Below are positions 541 to 60,085 of a stretch of DNA of 64,000 nucleotides, piece after piece. The stretch is from a virus (Duplodnaviria > Heunggongvirae > Uroviricota > Caudoviricetes). The stretch's first letter is position 1. Each line of letters opens with the position of its first letter. The stretch lies in IMG/VR virus record IMGVR_UViG_2595698869_000001, positions 107,214 through 171,213 of that record, one strand, 5' to 3'. The notes beneath the pieces are model-generated. The model was given only the letters and a program-made list of their open reading frames with translations. It ran no database searches and was not told the origin of the DNA. The position numbers were made by a program, and so were the translations under genes.

Positions 541-606
541 GGGCGCCGCACGTGGTTAACGCGCGGACTGTCGCCCATCACGACACTAGATGTCAAGATT
601 CATGAC
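541..606 (-). promoter_or_regulatory. Promoter for SNF2 helicase with GAATC (GANTC) abutting -35 TTGACA
   Basis: minus strand reads tcatGAATCTTGACAtctagtgtcg; same GAATCTTGACA arrangement as at 6639 and 9057. Confidence 0.45.
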
Positions 607-6638: not shown

Positions 6639-6680
6639 GAATCTTGACGTTCCGCGACGCCTGAGGCATGCTCGTATTCA
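6639..6680 (+). promoter_or_regulatory. Rightward promoter with GAATC abutting -35 (TTGACG)
   Basis: gtGAATCTTGACGttcc; diverges from rIIA promoter. Confidence 0.4.
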
Positions 6681-9056: not shown

Positions 9057-9126
9057 TGAATCTTGACACCTGTCGGGATTGGAGGCTAGATGGCTCCCGC
9101 CTTTCACCCCCGTCCCGACAGGCTTC
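9057..9126 (+). promoter_or_regulatory. Promoter for primase gene: GAATC-TTGACA-N16-GCTAGATG
   Basis: tcatGAATCTTGACAcctgtcgggattggagGCTAGATg matches host sigma73 consensus TTGACgS/GCTANAWC; GANTC at -35 edge. Confidence 0.55.
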
Positions 9127-54153: not shown

Positions 54154-54227
54154 ACAACCGCCAAGGGTCAAAAGAAAACCGCCGCCCCGAAGGACGGCGG
54201 TCATGACAGAGCATGTCAGGAGGGACG

Positions 54228-56351
54228 TCAGACGTCCAGAGCGAAGGCCGGCGGGGAGACGTCCGGCTTCTGAATGATGAATCCCCGATCCAAGAGGGGC
54301 GGGAAGACCTGCTTGAGCACGCCGGCCGCGACCCCGGCTTCCTCGGCGATTTCGGCGAACGTGAAGGCCTCGCGCTGGCCGGCGCTGGCGACAAACAGAT
54401 CGTTGAGCGCCAGGATCACCGCGCCCGCCGGACTGATCTCGTAGGCCATGTCGAAATTCGGGTCTTCTGACAGCCGCAGCAGGCCTTCCGCCTCCAGGTT
54501 CGCGATGAGCGCCTTGAGTTGGTCAACCTTGACCGCGCCAAGATGGGTTTGGATTTCCCAGGGCGCCGCCGGCTCCTCGGCGCGCACGGCTTGCAGCGTC
54601 GCGATCAAGGCGATCGCCGGCATGGCCCGCACGATCATCTCGTCGCCAACCGTCAGGTCCGGGGCGTTGACCAGCAGGTCATTGATCACCGCGTCGCCGT
54701 GGGTCTCGACATAGGTCCGCAGCCGCTTGAGGGCGACCAGGAAATCGTCCTTGGTGATCGGCTCGATGCGGAAGGTCAGGAGCGGGTCGGTCGGAATCTC
54801 CGAGAAGTAGGCCCGACCCCGGTGGCTCCAGCCCTCGACCACATGCAGGAAGAGATCGATCGGCATGGCGACGGCGCCAAAGCCCAGTCGCGCATCGTCC
54901 GTCGCCTCCTCGACCTGCGCCAAGGCGTTGTCGATCGCTTCGAGCGTGAAGCCCCCGACAAGGCCGTTTTCCGCCGCGTCCAGCACGTTGGCCGCTTCTT
55001 CGGTGCCGAGCCCTTCGACGACCATTTCCGAGGCCTCCTGAGCCGTTTCCTGCGGCAGGGCGTCGGCGAGCTTGCTCATCGCCTCGGCGACGCCGCTCGT
55101 GTCGAGTTCCAGCTTCAGGGCCAGCTTCTCGGGACGCGCCGAGTAGGGCACGCCCTGGATCACCACGGCGCCCAGGTCGCCGACGACGCGCTTGGTCACT
55201 TCCAGATAGGCGTAGCGCGAGGCGGCGTTGAGCAGCGACAGCCGTTCGAAGACGATCTGCTGCTCCTGCTCGCGCGACAGGATGCCCGTCTCCAGGATGA
55301 ATAGCGGCTCGGAGCCATCCAGCGGGGGCTTGGCCTCGCCGTCGTCTTCCGGAAGGTCCTCGTCGAAATCGGCGCCGCTGATCGGCTCGCTCTCCGGCGG
55401 GGTGAAGCGGATGCCCGGCTCGCGGGGCGGTTCGGCGGGAGTGGCGTCGTCGAGAGGCATGTCGGTCCTTTGAGGCTTGGAGGTGATGAAGAGCGTGGTG
55501 AGATCGACGTCCCAGACCCCGCGCCCGTCGGTGAAGAGCGCCATGAAGGTCCCCAGGCGCGCATCCCAGCGGATGGTCTGGATCACGCCGTTGACGTCGC
55601 CATAGACGCCGGTCGCCCCCACGAGTTCATCGCGCAGGACCTCCGCATGGTCGTGGCACTCACCAAGCGTCGCCGGACGCACGGCGTGGAACGGGTATTG
55701 CTGATAGGCGCCCGGCGGCGAGACGAGGCGGACATTGACGTAGAGCGGCCCCAGATGGGTGTGGGCGTCGCGCAGGAAGCCGACCACGGTCTCCCCGTCG
55801 TTCTGGGTCGCCACCACGGGCATGCCGGCGCAGTTAGCCGTCAGGACCGCCGGATAGTCCTGGGGATAGGCCACGGCGTACAGGTGGAGATGATCACCCC
55901 GGCGCTGGGCCTTCCAGTCGGCGACACACCAAGCCGCCACCCGCGTGGCCCCGAACTCCGGCGTCTCCTCGATCAAGACGCCGCCGTCCGGAAGGTCCGC
56001 CTGCCCGACGTAAGGAACGACCTCGCTATGGCTGACGCTCCAGGCGGGCTTGGGAAATTGCGGGGTGATCATGAGCTTCTCGGTGAAGGTGAGATTGATG
56101 GCGTCGGCGTAGTGAACATACGGGCCGACCGGGGTGGTCCATGGCGGATCACCCTTGCGGATGTCCGACAGCGGCACCGCGACGTGCCTGCCGTTGGGCT
56201 GGACGATGTCGGCCAGGATGCGCGGCGGCTGGTGCATCAGGGTCACGACGTGCCCCTCGCCCGCCTCGAAGGTGCGGCTCTTGGGCCACCAGACCTTGGA
56301 CCCGGTCCAGTGGATCGACTGGATGACGAGGTCTTGTTCGGTCCCGATCAT
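54228..56351 (-). CDS. large hypothetical protein (707 aa), acidic central region
   Basis: Long coherent high-GC3 ORF; ATGA coupling. Confidence 0.55.
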   Translation of the reverse strand: MIGTEQDLVIQSIHWTGSKVWWPKSRTFEAGEGHVVTLMHQPPRILADIVQPNGRHVAVPLSDIRKGDPPWTTPVGPYVHYADAINLTFTEKLMITPQFPKPAWSVSHSEVVPYVGQADLPDGGVLIEETPEFGATRVAAWCVADWKAQRRGDHLHLYAVAYPQDYPAVLTANCAGMPVVATQNDGETVVGFLRDAHTHLGPLYVNVRLVSPPGAYQQYPFHAVRPATLGECHDHAEVLRDELVGATGVYGDVNGVIQTIRWDARLGTFMALFTDGRGVWDVDLTTLFITSKPQRTDMPLDDATPAEPPREPGIRFTPPESEPISGADFDEDLPEDDGEAKPPLDGSEPLFILETGILSREQEQQIVFERLSLLNAASRYAYLEVTKRVVGDLGAVVIQGVPYSARPEKLALKLELDTSGVAEAMSKLADALPQETAQEASEMVVEGLGTEEAANVLDAAENGLVGGFTLEAIDNALAQVEEATDDARLGFGAVAMPIDLFLHVVEGWSHRGRAYFSEIPTDPLLTFRIEPITKDDFLVALKRLRTYVETHGDAVINDLLVNAPDLTVGDEMIVRAMPAIALIATLQAVRAEEPAAPWEIQTHLGAVKVDQLKALIANLEAEGLLRLSEDPNFDMAYEISPAGAVILALNDLFVASAGQREAFTFAEIAEEAGVAAGVLKQVFPPLLDRGFIIQKPDVSPPAFALDV

Positions 56352-56773
56352 GCGGACGCCGCCGCGCCGGCCGGCGTCAAGCCGTAGATGGTGGGGCCTC
56401 GCGGCGACTTTCCGAGCGCGACCACTTCCAGATAGCCCATATTGTTCAAAGCCTTGGCTGTTTCATGATCGGGGTGATCGTTGAAGACGTTGAGGCGCCC
56501 GCCCTCGCCCATCGCCTGGGCGGCGCGCAGAAGACTCGCCTCGGCTTCGGTCAGGGTGACCAGGGCGACGTCCTCCAGCGCCACGTCGATCACGCAGGTC
56601 TGACCCTGATGAACGAACTCGATGATCGCCAGCCGGCGATAGGTCCCCGGCAGGACCGCGAGACAGACGCCTCGGACCTCGACCTTCTGGCGGGCGGTGA
56701 TCGGGAGATAGAGGCTCGTCTTGACGGCCTTGCCCTTGAGGGACAGATGCTCGTGCGTCGCCAGCGGGATCAT
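56348..56773 (-). CDS. hypothetical protein
   Basis: ATGA coupling. Confidence 0.45.
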   Translation of the reverse strand: MIPLATHEHLSLKGKAVKTSLYLPITARQKVEVRGVCLAVLPGTYRRLAIIEFVHQGQTCVIDVALEDVALVTLTEAEASLLRAAQAMGEGGRLNVFNDHPDHETAKALNNMGYLEVVALGKSPRGPTIYGLTPAGAAASA

Positions 56774-57015
56774 GGCTCGACCTTCCGGACAGTGTAGGAG
56801 AATTCGTCGTGGACGCGACCGTCGAAACTAGCCTCGTAGCCGGGGCCGAGTTCGGCCAGGATGCGCGCCTCGATCTCGGCGAAGTCGATTTTCGCCATCG
56901 CCTGTTCGGCCGCCCGCATCTGCTGGAGGAAGCCGTCCTTGATCTGGCGCCCCGCCTCGGTGCGGATCGGGATGTTCTGGATCGGCGGCTCGGATTTCGA
57001 CAGACGCTCGCCCAT
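56770..57015 (-). CDS. hypothetical protein
   Basis: TGATG coupling with gcrA. Confidence 0.45.
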   Translation of the reverse strand: MGERLSKSEPPIQNIPIRTEAGRQIKDGFLQQMRAAEQAMAKIDFAEIEARILAELGPGYEASFDGRVHDEFSYTVRKVEP

Positions 57016-57563
57016 CAGGCCCTCCGGCGATAGACCCGCACCGGGCGGGTGGGGAGGCGTTTCTCAGGCGGCTTATAGGCGACCAGGGCATGGCTGATGC
57101 AGTAGACGCCTGCCTCGGCGCGGCACCCGCAATGGCCAAAGTCCGGCGAGTTCGGGTCGCCATAGGGCCAGCGGCACATTCCGCGCTTGAGTTCGGCCGT
57201 CGCGAACAGCCGCGCCGGGCGCGGCGGGATGACCGCCGTCCCTTCAGGGACCAGGGCGAGCTTGGGCTTGGCCGGCGGAGCGGGCTTTTCGACCTTCTTG
57301 GGCTTGCGCGCCGTGGCCTTCTTGACCTTGCGGACCTGGATGCCCAGGCCGCGCGTCTTCTTGCGGCGGGCGGTCGGAGGCGGAACCTTCTCGCCCAGTT
57401 CGCCGGCGGCCTTCAGTCGGTCGGCCTTGCCGCAGACGGCGCTCTTGGTGCGCGGCACGCTCAGGCGCTGACCGATCTCCTTGGTCCCGACCGGCTCCGC
57501 CCAGAGCTTCTTGAGCAGGGCGATGTCCTCGTCCGGCCAGTCGGAATTCCGCTTCTTCACCAC
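57015..57563 (-). CDS. gcrA: GcrA-like cell-cycle transcriptional regulator homolog
   Basis: N-terminus SDWPDEDIALLKKLWAEPVGTKEIGQRLSVPRTKSAVCGKADRL and C-terminus CRWPYGDPNSPDFGHCGC...YCISH match the two conserved GcrA domains; AAGGAG SD, GTG start. Confidence 0.75.
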   Translation of the reverse strand: MVKKRNSDWPDEDIALLKKLWAEPVGTKEIGQRLSVPRTKSAVCGKADRLKAAGELGEKVPPPTARRKKTRGLGIQVRKVKKATARKPKKVEKPAPPAKPKLALVPEGTAVIPPRPARLFATAELKRGMCRWPYGDPNSPDFGHCGCRAEAGVYCISHALVAYKPPEKRLPTRPVRVYRRRA

Positions 57564-57570
57564 GCTTGCA

Positions 57571-57750
57571 CTACTCCTTGATCTCGACGCTCTTGGGCGG
57601 ATTGGGATGAGGAACGAAGACCAGGGCCACGTCCTGACCGCCGGTATAGCGCGTGCGTCGGCTATAGAGCCAGCCGCCTTCCACCGCCAACCGCTCGGTC
57701 ACCTGACCATCGGCTTCGTCGATCTTTTCCCACTTGGACTTCTTAGCCAT
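57571..57750 (-). CDS. small protein (59 aa), not in ORF track
   Basis: GAGGGGAAG-ATG; MAKKSKWEKIDEADGQVTERLAVEGGWLYSRRTRYTGGQDVALVFVPHPNPPKSVEIKE. Confidence 0.35.
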   Translation of the reverse strand: MAKKSKWEKIDEADGQVTERLAVEGGWLYSRRTRYTGGQDVALVFVPHPNPPKSVEIKE

Positions 57751-57790
57751 CTTCCCCTCGAATTTGGCGGCACCCTAGAGGAGCGTTCGA

Positions 57791-57885
57791 GTGTTGACAA
57801 GCACCAATGTCGCTGGCTTTCGAGTGTTGACAAGTCCGGTGCTCGTCTATAGGGGAGACCGGGACGACAACGAAAGGAGCCTGCC
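57791..57885 (+). promoter_or_regulatory. Tandem cassette promoters (two GTGTTGACA boxes 33 bp apart) + leader for rightward operon
   Basis: ttcgaGTGTTGACAagcacc...ttcgaGTGTTGACAagtccggtgctcgtCTATAGGggagaccggGACGACAACGAAAGGAGcctgccATG. Confidence 0.55.
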
Positions 57886-58194
57886 ATGCGCTATGTGCTC
57901 GACTATGCCGACGACCGGGACAACCCGGTCTATACCGATTTCCAGGCCGGCGACCGCAAGGCGGCCATCGCCAAGGCCAAGCGCCTGCTCGCCAAGGCGA
58001 TCAAGACCGTCGATTTCTCGCTCCACGGGGCCTACATCTTCGTCGATCCGACGGGCGTCGCCCGCGACGTCGACGACATGATCCCGTTCGGCATGCTGAG
58101 CACGATGGCCTACGCCAGCATCGTCACCCCGTCGATGATCTCGTTCGACGACCGCGACGCCAAGGCGGCGATCGCCGCGAGGCTCGCCCAATGA
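57886..58194 (+). CDS. hypothetical protein
   Basis: First gene after tandem promoters. Confidence 0.5.
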   Translation: MRYVLDYADDRDNPVYTDFQAGDRKAAIAKAKRLLAKAIKTVDFSLHGAYIFVDPTGVARDVDDMIPFGMLSTMAYASIVTPSMISFDDRDAKAAIAARLAQ

Positions 58195-58403
58195 TGGATC
58201 GTCAGGACGTCCAGCCCGGCTTCATCTATCGCGGCGGCAAGAACGGAACCCTGCGTCAGATCGTGAGCTATGGGGCGACCGAGGATTTCGTCTGCTGGGC
58301 CAATCCCCACGACCGCCTGCCCTACGGCGGCTTCATCTCCACCATCTGCACGTCCAGGACGTCGTTCGCCCGCTGGGCCGACAAGATCGAGGAAGAGGTC
58401 TGA
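58191..58403 (+). CDS. hypothetical small protein
   Basis: ATGA overlap. Confidence 0.45.
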   Translation: MMDRQDVQPGFIYRGGKNGTLRQIVSYGATEDFVCWANPHDRLPYGGFISTICTSRTSFARWADKIEEEV

Positions 58404-58684
58404 TGCTGTACAGCATGATCACGGGCGACTCTCCCGAAGACGAATTCGCCGACTATGAGTTCGCCAACGGGACCCAGGTCCACAATTCTCAAGCCGAGGA
58501 CGATGGAACCTTCCGTCGCATGATCACCACGCCCAAGGGGATCAACGTCACCTTCTGGAACGTGATGCCCGTCGAGATCGTGGGCGAGGTCGCGGCCGAA
58601 CTCGATCGGGTCGCGGCGGTCAACTTCGAGCAGGGCAAGCGTGCGAAGGCAGGTGAAATCATTCGCGTGTTGGGGCTCGGATGA
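58403..58684 (+). CDS. hypothetical small protein
   Basis: TGATG overlap. Confidence 0.45.
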   Translation: MLYSMITGDSPEDEFADYEFANGTQVHNSQAEDDGTFRRMITTPKGINVTFWNVMPVEIVGEVAAELDRVAAVNFEQGKRAKAGEIIRVLGLG

Positions 58685-58953
58685 ACACCTTCTTCCTTCG
58701 GCAGACCAAACGGGACGAGCAGGGTCGACGCTACTTTGAGTTCGTCGATCCTGACCTGACCCAGCGCCTCTATGTCCGCAAGCCGCCGGACGACTGGTCC
58801 GAGGGCTTCCCGATCGTCCTGGAGGACTTCGTCGATGGCAAGCCCGCCGGCTCCATCATCTGCCCGGCCGGGAAGAAGCGGGGGCATGGCTTCGCGGCCT
58901 TCTTCAAGGCCAACCCTAAGGATTTCCGCAAGCTCAAGAAAGGTCGCCTATGA
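58681..58953 (+). CDS. hypothetical small basic protein
   Basis: ATGA overlap. Confidence 0.45.
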   Translation: MNTFFLRQTKRDEQGRRYFEFVDPDLTQRLYVRKPPDDWSEGFPIVLEDFVDGKPAGSIICPAGKKRGHGFAAFFKANPKDFRKLKKGRL

Positions 58954-59207
58954 GGATTCCCCAGCCCGTCGAGTTCACCGTGGCCGACCTCATCGCCCAC
59001 CTTGCGACCCTGCCCCAGGACGCCAAGGTCGGCGTGCGCGGCGGGTTCGGGGGCTTCCGGCCGCTCGACGAGATCGCCCCGATCGAACTCGTCACCTTCT
59101 ACGGCGAGACCGACGTCGACCGCATGACGCTGGCGACCGCCGACCCCATCGCCATCAACTGGAAGGGCAAGCGCGGCGAGCCCTTCACGGCCATCATTCT
59201 CGACTAG
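58950..59207 (+). CDS. hypothetical small protein
   Basis: ATGA overlap. Confidence 0.45.
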   Translation: MRIPQPVEFTVADLIAHLATLPQDAKVGVRGGFGGFRPLDEIAPIELVTFYGETDVDRMTLATADPIAINWKGKRGEPFTAIILD

Positions 59208-59216
59208 GAGGACCCA

Positions 59217-59455
59217 TGACCAACCGTGTCTGGATTGAACTCGAACCGTCCGCGTCCGAGGGCCACGCCCGCGCCGCCGCCGCGTCGGCCATGCTGAAGC
59301 GCCTGGGTGTCGACGTCGGCGTCCACAAGCCGGTGTTCTGGCACGAGCGCAATGAGCGCTACTGCTTCACGCTCGACGCCTCGGGCGTCTACGTCGAGGC
59401 CGAGGACCACGGCCACTGGTACAACCTCGATTTCCTGGCGGGCGCCGATGTCTGA
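59217..59455 (+). CDS. hypothetical small protein
   Basis: AGGAGG SD. Confidence 0.45.
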
Positions 59456-59843
59456 GGTCTTCCCGCCGATCCGCCCCCGCGAGGCCAGGGACGAGGAAAT
59501 CCACGGCTTCGTCGTCCGCTACGGCTGGTTCTGGAACGTGACCCTGCTGAACGGCACGATCCTGGCCTTCGATCCCGACGATGTCGACCCCTGCCGCTAC
59601 GGCGTGACGGGCAAGGACGACTTCCGCAACCTCGCCGGCGCGCCCGAGACGATCGCGGCCTACGAGTGCGTCCAGGGCTGGCACGCCAAGGCCAAGCACC
59701 TCTCGGGCTGGACCGAACGTCACGACGACCGGCTCGAAGCCCTGCGGACGGCTTATCGCCGCCTGGAGGAGCAGCGCGAGCGCAACAGCCGCGCCCTGGA
59801 GGAGCACGGCGGCATCTTCAAGTTTCTGGAAGGTCAGGACTGA
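59448..59843 (+). CDS. hypothetical protein
   Basis: ATGTCTGA 8-nt overlap. Confidence 0.45.
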   Translation: MSEVFPPIRPREARDEEIHGFVVRYGWFWNVTLLNGTILAFDPDDVDPCRYGVTGKDDFRNLAGAPETIAAYECVQGWHAKAKHLSGWTERHDDRLEALRTAYRRLEEQRERNSRALEEHGGIFKFLEGQD

Positions 59844-60085
59844 TGCAGAGGACCCTCCATTCGACCGGCCAGGAACTTTCGGTCAAGTTCAAGTTCCCGA
59901 GTGAAAACCTGACCTTGACCGTGCATGCCGAACAGGACAGCCCGATGGCGTTCCTTTGGGTCGAAGGCCGTTCGGTCGACTATTTCGAGAAGCTCCTGAG
60001 CTTCGAGCCGGCCGATCTCGATCTCTTGATCGCCACCCTGTCCGAGGCGCGCAAGATGATCCGCGAGCGCGAGCCGCAGGACTGA
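59843..60085 (+). CDS. hypothetical small protein
   Basis: TGATG overlap. Confidence 0.45.
   Translation: MQRTLHSTGQELSVKFKFPSENLTLTVHAEQDSPMAFLWVEGRSVDYFEKLLSFEPADLDLLIATLSEARKMIREREPQD

Follow-up and report, generated by a model that had tools for sequence, protein, structure and literature searches.

A GcrA-like gene in the genome of Caulobacter phage CcrKarma

We analysed a stretch of 64,000 nucleotides (hereafter the window; positions 107,214 to 171,213 of IMG/VR record IMGVR_UViG_2595698869_000001) in which an open reading frame (ORF) on the minus strand (57015..57563, GTG start, stop included) encodes a 182-residue protein related to GcrA, the cell-cycle regulator of Caulobacter crescentus. 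Window bases 55000-60000 matched Caulobacter phage CcrKarma (JX100811.1), a 222-kb phiCbK-like siphophage, at 100% identity, and the whole 64-kb window mapped exactly onto that record from position 107214, a window coordinate being the record coordinate minus 107213. The ORF is CcrKarma gp234 (AFU87751.1), 100% identical to JX100811.1 164228-164776 and deposited there as 'putative GcrA-like cell cycle regulator'. The GC content of the three codon positions in the gp234 frame (0.67/0.53/0.88) identified this minus-strand frame as the coding one. Two plus-strand ORFs of the same region, 57090..57581 and 57187..57471, were rejected as genes, being mirror-frame shadows typical of a genome with 66% GC.

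The gene has been known and annotated as a GcrA homolog since 2012, observation and interpretation alike. Gill et al. (2012, BMC Genomics 13:542, PMC3556154) gave it a section of its own as phiCbK gp222, described its Pfam membership and its absence from CcrColossus, reported orthologs in CcrMagneto, CcrSwift, CcrKarma and CcrRogue, and proposed that it activates host replication functions in swarmer cells without host GcrA. At the gene level, phiCbK gp222 and its orthologs are the same gene as gp234, with no difference between them. Haakonsen et al. (2015, PMC4647560) suggested that phage homologs may bind RNA polymerase like GcrA, and the idea of a phage GcrA has since been taken up again (PMC7987155, PMC9437464, PMC13459779). 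We add here a residue-level comparison with the GcrA structures of 2018 and 2023, the anatomy of the operon and its promoters, and statistics on GANTC sites and promoters. gp234 comprises the following parts:

57408..57539, minus strand: N-terminal helix-turn-helix DNA-binding domain (DBD), residues 9-52; aligns to the GcrA DBD 5yiu_A and is present in the AlphaFold model
57195..57407, minus strand: basic linker, residues 53-123; predicted local distance difference test score (pLDDT) 53-78
57066..57194, minus strand: C-terminal sigma-interacting domain (SID), residues 124-166; from zinc ligands, AlphaFold and Foldseek
57018..57065, minus strand: C-terminal basic tail EKRLPTRPVRVYRRRA, residues 167-182; 7 lysines or arginines in 16 residues
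57017..57015, minus strand: stop codon TGA, from the ORF list

gp234 is a member of the GcrA family

gp234 matched the Pfam family GcrA (PF07750) with 89 bits against a cutoff of 26.9, its residues 8-168 covering profile positions 2-150 of 155. The best match in the PDB was the GcrA chain 7ye1_G (E = 8.5e-19), and 5yix_B, which comprises the SID, and 5yiu_A, which comprises the DBD, were matched as well; the significant PDB matches were GcrA chains only, both by sequence and by fold (Foldseek). BLASTP alignment to host GcrA gave 30% identity over 162 residues, with the similarity located in the two folded domains, not confined to low-complexity sequence, and none of it in the linker. Both peptide blocks that the original prediction had quoted as evidence of a phage-encoded GcrA homolog of 182 residues were located in the protein, WPDEDIALLKKLWAEPVGTKEIGQRLSVPRTKSAVCGKADRL at residues 9-50 and CRWPYGDPNSPDFGHCGC...YCISH at residues 130-158. 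Among phage protein families, gp234 matched phrog_12262 with 395 bits.

An AlphaFold model of gp234, built on a 68-sequence alignment, consisted of a three-helix N-terminal domain (helices 11-21, 27-33 and 40-52, pLDDT about 95) and a loop-rich C-terminal domain with one short helix (residues 111-160, pLDDT 93-97), separated by a 60-residue linker of low confidence. By sequence and predicted fold, gp234 truly belongs to the GcrA family, as had been claimed, and represents a phage lineage of it.

The sigma-interacting domain and the C-terminal tail

For the comparison of individual residues, contacts and mutants were taken from Wu et al. 2018 (PMC5887438), and residue frequencies from 152 family representatives obtained with an exhaustive HMMER search; a word-indexed homolog search had returned only 4 proteins. 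The zinc ligands of gp234 (C130, C145, C155 and H158) have the spacing C-X14-C-X9-C-X2-H, equal to that of the host ligands C118, C133, C143 and H146, and this Cys-Cys-Cys-His (CCCH) set was invariant in the 152 family members. Superposition of the gp234 SID on 5yix_B with Foldseek gave a template modelling (TM) score of 0.90 and a root-mean-square deviation of 0.7 Å at 47% identity. Eight residues of gp234 (W132, D136, P137, F142, Y154, V161, A162 and Y163) are the same as their host counterparts (W120, D124, P125, F130, Y142, V149, A150 and Y151), for which a mutation effect or a contact with sigma70 region 2 is documented (PMC5887438). Host K119 is replaced by R131, and arginine is the majority state in the family. 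At the position of host G129 gp234 carries D141, an aspartate shared with 77 of the 152 members. The disruptive host mutant G129D was considered as an argument against sigma binding by gp234 and rejected, since aspartate is the majority state in the family. Judged by these residues, the sigma-binding half of gp234 looks competent. The basic tail that follows it is the counterpart of the basic patch at host residues 157-173 (PMC5887438).

The DNA-binding domain and the linker

The recognition helix of gp234 reads TKSAVCGKADRL. Residues W9, W21, T39, G45, K46 and R49 retain host W3, W15, T32, G38, K39 and R42, which provide scaffold and backbone contacts. At four other positions gp234 has K40, S41, C44 and D48 where the host protein has R33, N34, I37 and H41, residues that serve base reading and form the methyl pockets (PMC5887438). 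The phage residues at these positions are minority states, found respectively in 12, 30, 10 and 8 of the 152 family members. The changes in the DNA-reading half fall precisely on the residues by which GANTC and methyl recognition are defined, and as far as residue identity tells, gp234 is not equivalent to host GcrA in DNA reading.

The linker bears no similarity to the host linker detectable by BLASTP. It is 9 residues longer and more basic, with 19 lysines or arginines in 71 residues compared with 8 in 62 in host GcrA, and its motifs RRKKTRGLGIQVRKVKK and KPKLALVPEG were kept in the Karma, Rogue, BL10 and BL57 proteins.

gp234 represents a diverged phage lineage

Searches with tblastn found gp234 in 26 Caulobacter phage records: 17 phiCbK-group records at an identity of at least 98.9%, and nine records from six more Caulobacter phages at 57-62%. 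Its nearest relatives were these Caulobacter phage homologs together with a small number of metagenomic sequences (P0004-P0006), which have in common a clade signature, MCRWPYGDP..FGHCGC, and the basic linker motif RKKTRG(L/Y)GIQ. Because cellular GcrAs were all about equally distant from gp234, the gene is, on sequence comparison, a diverged phage lineage and not a recent copy captured from the host. No GcrA homolog was detected in CcrColossus by tblastn with either the phage or the host query, the absence also reported by Gill et al. in 2012.

The ratio of nonsynonymous to synonymous substitution rates (dN/dS) between Karma and each of Rogue, BL10 and BL57 was 0.45-0.59 for the whole gene, 0.36-0.43 for the DBD and 0.27-0.55 for the SID; between Rogue and BL57 it was 0.65 overall, 0.63 in the DBD and 0.57 in the SID. 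These values indicate moderate purifying selection on gp234.

Two metagenomic GcrA-like proteins have a different architecture, with three (P0007, 319 residues) and five (P0008, 410 residues) tandem N-terminal helix-turn-helix copies before a single C-terminal SID, which suggests sigma cofactors that read several DNA sites.

The gp234 operon and its putative promoter are conserved

gp234 lies in a leftward operon with the order gp235-gp234-gp233-gp232-gp231. The features of the operon and of the divergent region beside it are:

57571..57750, minus strand: gp235, a 59-residue ORF and first gene of the operon; matches phrog_14288 only, no Pfam match; syntenic in four lineages
57574..57579, minus strand: Shine-Dalgarno sequence AAGGAG of gp234, inside the last gp235 codons, 10 nucleotides (nt) upstream of the GTG
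56770..57015, minus strand: gp233, 81 residues, a free-standing fragment of DNA polymerase family A (45 bits with PF00476 over profile positions 120-170 of 381)
54228..56773, minus strand: gp232 (141 residues) and gp231 (672-707 residues), the remaining operon genes, with no assigned function
54202..54177, minus strand: intrinsic terminator closing the operon after gp231
57772..57800, minus strand: putative leftward sigma73-type promoter of the gp235-gp234 operon; TTGTCA (57800..57795), 17-nt spacer, TAGGGT (57777..57772)
57827..57855, plus strand: divergent rightward promoter for gp236 onward; TTGACA (57827-57832), 17-nt spacer, TAGGGG (57850-57855), leader GGACGACAACGAAAGGAG

The gene had been described as the end of a long leftward block next to a divergent promoter region. 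The leftward block was confirmed; the position was not, as gp234 is the second gene and gp235 lies between it and the promoters. It does have its own Shine-Dalgarno sequence, as predicted, and the arrangement AGGAGTAG-N7-8-GTG was kept in the four phage lineages Karma, Rogue, BL10 and BL57. At the other end of the gene, the ATG of gp233 overlaps the gp234 stop codon (TGATG), an arrangement of translational coupling that was likewise kept in the four lineages. The order of the five genes, the GTG, the Shine-Dalgarno sequence and the stop/start overlap were all preserved in CcrRogue, CcrBL10 and BL57, and the synteny of the five genes extends over two genera, Shapirovirus and Poindextervirus.

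Alignment of the divergent intergenic region (57751..57885, 135 bp) across the four lineages revealed two CTTGTCAACAC boxes and CT(C/T)TAGGGTGCCG conserved between variable flanks; the putative leftward promoter TTGTCA-N17-TAGGGT was conserved as well, as were the rightward promoter and its leader. This region also carries a direct repeat, CGAGTGTTGACAAG, with 33-bp spacing (57788-57801 and 57821-57834, plus strand), whose core TTGWCAA is palindromic; copy 1, read in the opposite direction, seems to supply the -35 of the leftward gcrA-like promoter, and copy 2 seems to supply that of the rightward one. The divergent region contains no GANTC. No CtrA box (TTAA-N7-TTAA, at most 1 mismatch) was found in the whole window, and CtrA control of the gp234 operon was rejected for lack of one.

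Two further observations concern the downstream genes. gp233 carries the motif-A-like sequence DFAEIEARILA, and a full T7-like polymerase, gp125, is encoded elsewhere in the phage. The open frame of gp231 (54228..56351, minus strand) has 707 residues, of which the deposited annotation and phrog_12845 begin at residue 36 (672 residues), and no Pfam domain was found in it.

GANTC sites are depleted and early-type promoters rarely contain them

GANTC occurred 67 times in the window, where base composition predicts about 202 occurrences and a third-order Markov model predicts 131. Palindromes of matched composition (CANTG, CTNAG and TANTA) were depleted equally, so the depletion is not specific to GANTC. 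Enrichment of GANTC was rejected, the sites being depleted in the window and genome-wide. Mapping on the annotation placed 297 sites in the CcrKarma genome, 48 of them intergenic.

The phage depends on dozens of consensus sigma73-type promoters. One class, which we call early-type, has the form (a/g)GTGTTGACA-N17-TAGAAG with the leader GACGACAACGAAGGAG and fits the Caulobacter sigma73 consensus; the conserved leader sequence that follows it, cGACGACAACGAaGGAG, includes the ribosome-binding site. The -35 sequence GTTGACA was present at 34 sites in the genome, 20 of which lie in the window (position of the first G, with strand):

6613-, 7633+, 7658+, 13267+, 18681-, 24876-, 26879-, 31286-, 33804-, 35850-
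39151-, 41097-, 42992-, 47659-, 49826-, 54151-, 57793+, 57826+, 60278+, 63412+

A GANTC in the spacer was found in 3 of the 25 early-type promoters with a usable -10, compared with 0.67 expected, a weak and post hoc signal. These three sites centre at -17/-18, outside the phases -20 ± 1 and -30 ± 2 at which host GcrA boxes lie when they are not at +5 to +30 (PMC9976885). The leader GACGACAACGAAGGAG was also considered as a DNA site for gp234 and found unsupported: a variant of it is present in CcrColossus, which lacks GcrA, and a role in RNA or translation is simpler.

A second promoter class carries an invariant GANTC beside the -35

About 20 of the 48 intergenic GANTC sites belong to a second kind of promoter element, aTGTCGTGAATCTTGACA, followed after 16-17 nt by a -10 of the (C/G)TAG type. 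In about 21 such class-2 promoters an invariant GANTC abuts the -35 TTGACA in the element TGTCGTGAATCTTGACA. Across the CcrKarma genome, GANTC followed by YTGAC occurred 22 times against 1.3 expected. The class-2 sites lie in intergenic DNA, 46-194 bp upstream of genes of the same orientation. These genes encode the portal, the tail tube, the tape-measure chaperone, tail proteins, endolysin, NrdA, an exonuclease, methylases and a helicase. The sites include:

Window: 597-601 (minus strand), 6639-6643 (plus strand), 9058-9062 (plus strand)
CcrKarma record, among others: 19600, 22543, 25624, 30594, 33340, 47512, 53244, 56910, 65804, 78501, 87077, 88034, 94147, 101831, 206318

The original prediction had expected the phage to possess GANTC-type promoters of its own. 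This did not hold for the promoter of gp234 itself, which has no GANTC, nor for GANTC frequency or the early-type promoters; it is partly borne out by the class-2 promoters.

The class-2 core was kept at orthologous positions in CcrRogue while its flanks drift, and the element is at its most invariant in the GANTC, which persists between phages with different outer half-sites. The element has dyad symmetry (GTCrTGA-A-TCtTGAC), and TGTC-N9-GACA is overrepresented, with 19 copies compared with 1-4 at other spacings; 7 of its intergenic copies have no GANTC. CcrColossus, which lacks GcrA, carries TGCCAGGAATC(T/C)TGAC upstream of its rIIa, methylase and NrdA genes with different outer half-sites. 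Many class-2 copies are accompanied by a CtrA half-site, TTAACCAT, downstream. No description of the element was found in Gill 2012, in Mascolo 2022 or in searchable literature joining phiCbK, promoter and GANTC, and the class-2 GANTC promoters are potentially the one new item of this analysis, situated mostly outside the gp234 coordinates.

The messenger RNA of host ccrM rises 1.3-1.5-fold during phiCbK infection of a mixed culture (S3 Table, PMC10688885), and its persistence makes GANTC methylation possible during infection. On minimal medium, hosts mutant in gcrA or ccrM are viable (PMC3885167). We also considered a phage gene, gp129 (CcrKarma record 101106-101720, minus strand, outside the window), as a methylation writer paired with gp234 as reader. 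This pairing was rejected since gp129 is also present in phages that lack GcrA, its relatives occurring in CcrColossus, CcrSC, CcrBL9, CcrPW, Brevundimonas phages and T5-like Escherichia coli phages. gp129 encodes a 204-residue gamma-class amino-methyltransferase with motif I EPFAGNG and motif IV NPPY, adjoins a T5 A1-like gene and had no match in Pfam, NCBIfam or the PDB. gp126, the other methylase of the phage, is of the C5-cytosine type.

Proposed mechanism and alternative explanations

We infer the sigma binding, expression timing, DNA specificity and target genes of gp234 as follows. Most likely, gp234 is a phage-supplied cofactor of sigma73 that is made independently of the host cell cycle and has a shifted DNA preference. 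Host RNA polymerase, the only one available because the phage annotation lists no RNA polymerase gene anywhere in the genome, would transcribe gp234 from its conserved sigma73-type promoter. As this promoter has no CtrA box, gp234 should be made in swarmer cells, which contain almost no host GcrA. Like host GcrA, gp234 would then dock through its CCCH zinc domain, in monomeric form, on region 2 of the primary sigma factor of the host, and equip the polymerase with a helix-turn-helix domain tethered on a long basic linker. The holoenzyme carrying gp234 would be biased toward promoters bearing the site that this domain prefers. The retention of the two basic residues that read G, of the glycine pocket and of the backbone lysine makes a GANTC-like site probable; preferences for the flanks, the central base and the methyl group probably differ from those of the host protein, because four contact residues are changed. 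The targets could be host S-phase genes, phage GANTC promoters or neither, and the about 21 GANTC promoters of fixed position provide a defined set of candidates. A virus that carries a version of the host cell-cycle sigma cofactor would be a case of regulatory piracy, one that bears on how phiCbK-type phages infect non-replicating swarmer cells, which lack GcrA (PMC3556154; PMC4647560).

Several points weigh against this explanation. gp234 scored 83.4 bits with the NCBIfam equivalog model of cellular GcrA (NF050816) and fell far short of its cutoff of 280. With the 30% identity and the four changed GANTC-reading residues, this score shows that calling gp234 a copy of the host master regulator was right as to homology and overstated the likeness. 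Besides the replacements K40, S41, C44 and D48, the equivalent of host K39, an essential residue, is methionine in the Rogue and BL10 proteins, so that DNA reading by gp234 may be weak, or quite different from that of the host protein. In the sigma-binding half, host F132 is replaced by H144, a rare state found in 5 of 152 members, and the alanine mutant of F132 loses the two-hybrid interaction (PMC5887438). The overall dN/dS of 0.45-0.65 is rather relaxed, and the searchable literature yielded no functional experiment on any phage GcrA homolog.

Two alternatives assign gp234 a specific set of targets. That it replaces GcrA in G1 swarmer cells and activates the host S-phase regulon, including replication and nucleotide supply, so that a non-replicating cell becomes permissive for phage DNA synthesis (Gill et al. 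2012), strikes us as conceivable yet doubtful. It agrees with the intact sigma-binding domain predicted for gp234, with the retention of the G-contacting K40 and R49 and of the G45 methyl pocket, and with the lack of GcrA in infected swarmer cells. The phage, on the other hand, has its own T7-like DNA polymerase, helicases, NrdAB, ThyA and deoxynucleoside monophosphate kinase, and the low identity and equivalog score are joined by four base- and methyl-contact residues that not only differ from the host but still drift within the phage clade. The chromosome of an infected Caulobacter cell does bear methylated GANTC sites, which counts for host targets. We take CCNA_00005 (dnaQ) to be the gene of the polymerase III epsilon subunit, the likely target named by Gill et al. 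Its transcript stayed flat in infection (S3 Table, PMC10688885), albeit in a mixed culture, most of whose cells contain GcrA already. It is also unlikely that gp234, tethered to sigma, reads the invariant GANTC of the class-2 promoters (at about -38) and thereby lets structural, lysis and replication genes fire independently of host GcrA and of cell-cycle stage. The 21 CcrKarma sites, their strong excess and co-orientation in intergenic DNA, their conservation at orthologous Rogue positions and the invariance of GANTC within them are what this explanation would lead one to expect, and the context TGAATCT/AGATTCA, which is unlike the host-preferred YGAKTCG, parallels the altered recognition helix. 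The longer and more basic linker could perhaps reach past the host limit of about -32 (PMC9976885). However, host GcrA boxes never occur at the position of the class-2 GANTC, about -40 to -36; the dyad symmetry and the enriched TGTC-N9-GACA fit a dimeric factor, and GcrA is monomeric; and the corresponding elements upstream of orthologous genes in CcrColossus, which lacks GcrA, argue against exclusivity. Rather improbable, too, is the stronger version in which gp234 has co-evolved with a phage GANTC promoter code, its altered recognition helix and longer, basic linker enabling sigma73-bound gp234 to read the invariant GA(A/T)TC directly upstream of the -35 at these same promoters. If it were true, the phage would carry its own reader of an epigenetic site and its main transcription programme would run independently of the host cell cycle, and the same sites in CcrColossus would await host GcrA or another factor.

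The remaining alternatives dispense with DNA reading or with function altogether. gp234 might cover the surface of sigma73 on which GcrA docks, without reading DNA productively, exclude host GcrA and thereby freeze or divert the host cell-cycle programme, the 'stalling' speculation of PMC7987155, to which we give little credence. Conservation is stronger in the SID than at the DNA-contact residues, drift of the recognition helix extends to the K39 equivalent in Rogue and BL10, and occupancy would be a matter of competition given a dissociation constant of the host GcrA-RNA polymerase complex below 15 nM (PMC4647560). Yet the DBD, which would be superfluous for a pure blocker, has dN/dS values against Karma of 0.36-0.43 and a confident fold with W9, W21, G45 and R49, and host GcrA is already scarce in the infected swarmer cells (PMC4647560). 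Finally, a decaying passenger without a role in infection would account for the relatively high overall dN/dS and for the absence of the gene from Colossus-type relatives. That reading is hardly credible, since 26 phage records of two genera retain an intact gene and share its start, Shine-Dalgarno sequence, stop/start overlap and promoter, no zinc ligand and few interface residues have been lost, and dN/dS is below 1 in both domains.

Comparison with known systems

The closest system is Caulobacter crescentus GcrA itself (CCNA_02328; PDB 5YIX, 5YIV/5YIW, 7YE1/7YE2), a sigma70 cofactor and reader of GANTC containing N6-methyladenine, whose helix-turn-helix DBD, disordered linker, CCCH zinc SID and basic tail are all common to gp234. 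The two differ in their control, host gcrA being expressed from a CtrA-repressed cell-cycle promoter and gp234 from a phage sigma73-type promoter without a CtrA box. Among phages, tblastn with host GcrA found GcrA-like genes in 74 records, including Brucella phages Tb/Pr/R-C/Y17, Agrobacterium phage Atu_ph08 and phages of Synechococcus, Brevundimonas, Phaeobacter and Rhizobium; such genes have been reported before in Agrobacterium and Brucella phages. Like gp234, these are phage-borne family members presumed to manipulate host transcription; unlike gp234, several match the DBD only or the SID only. Small sigma-binding proteins that shift the promoter use of host polymerase are also familiar from T4 AsiA/MotA (sigma appropriation), E. 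coli Crl and mycobacterial RbpA. The likeness of these proteins to gp234 is an analogy of mechanism only, drawn in part from the comparison in PMC5887438, as they are unrelated to it in sequence and fold. The surfaces used differ as well, AsiA targeting region 4 of sigma and a SID of the GcrA type targeting region 2 and the non-conserved region.

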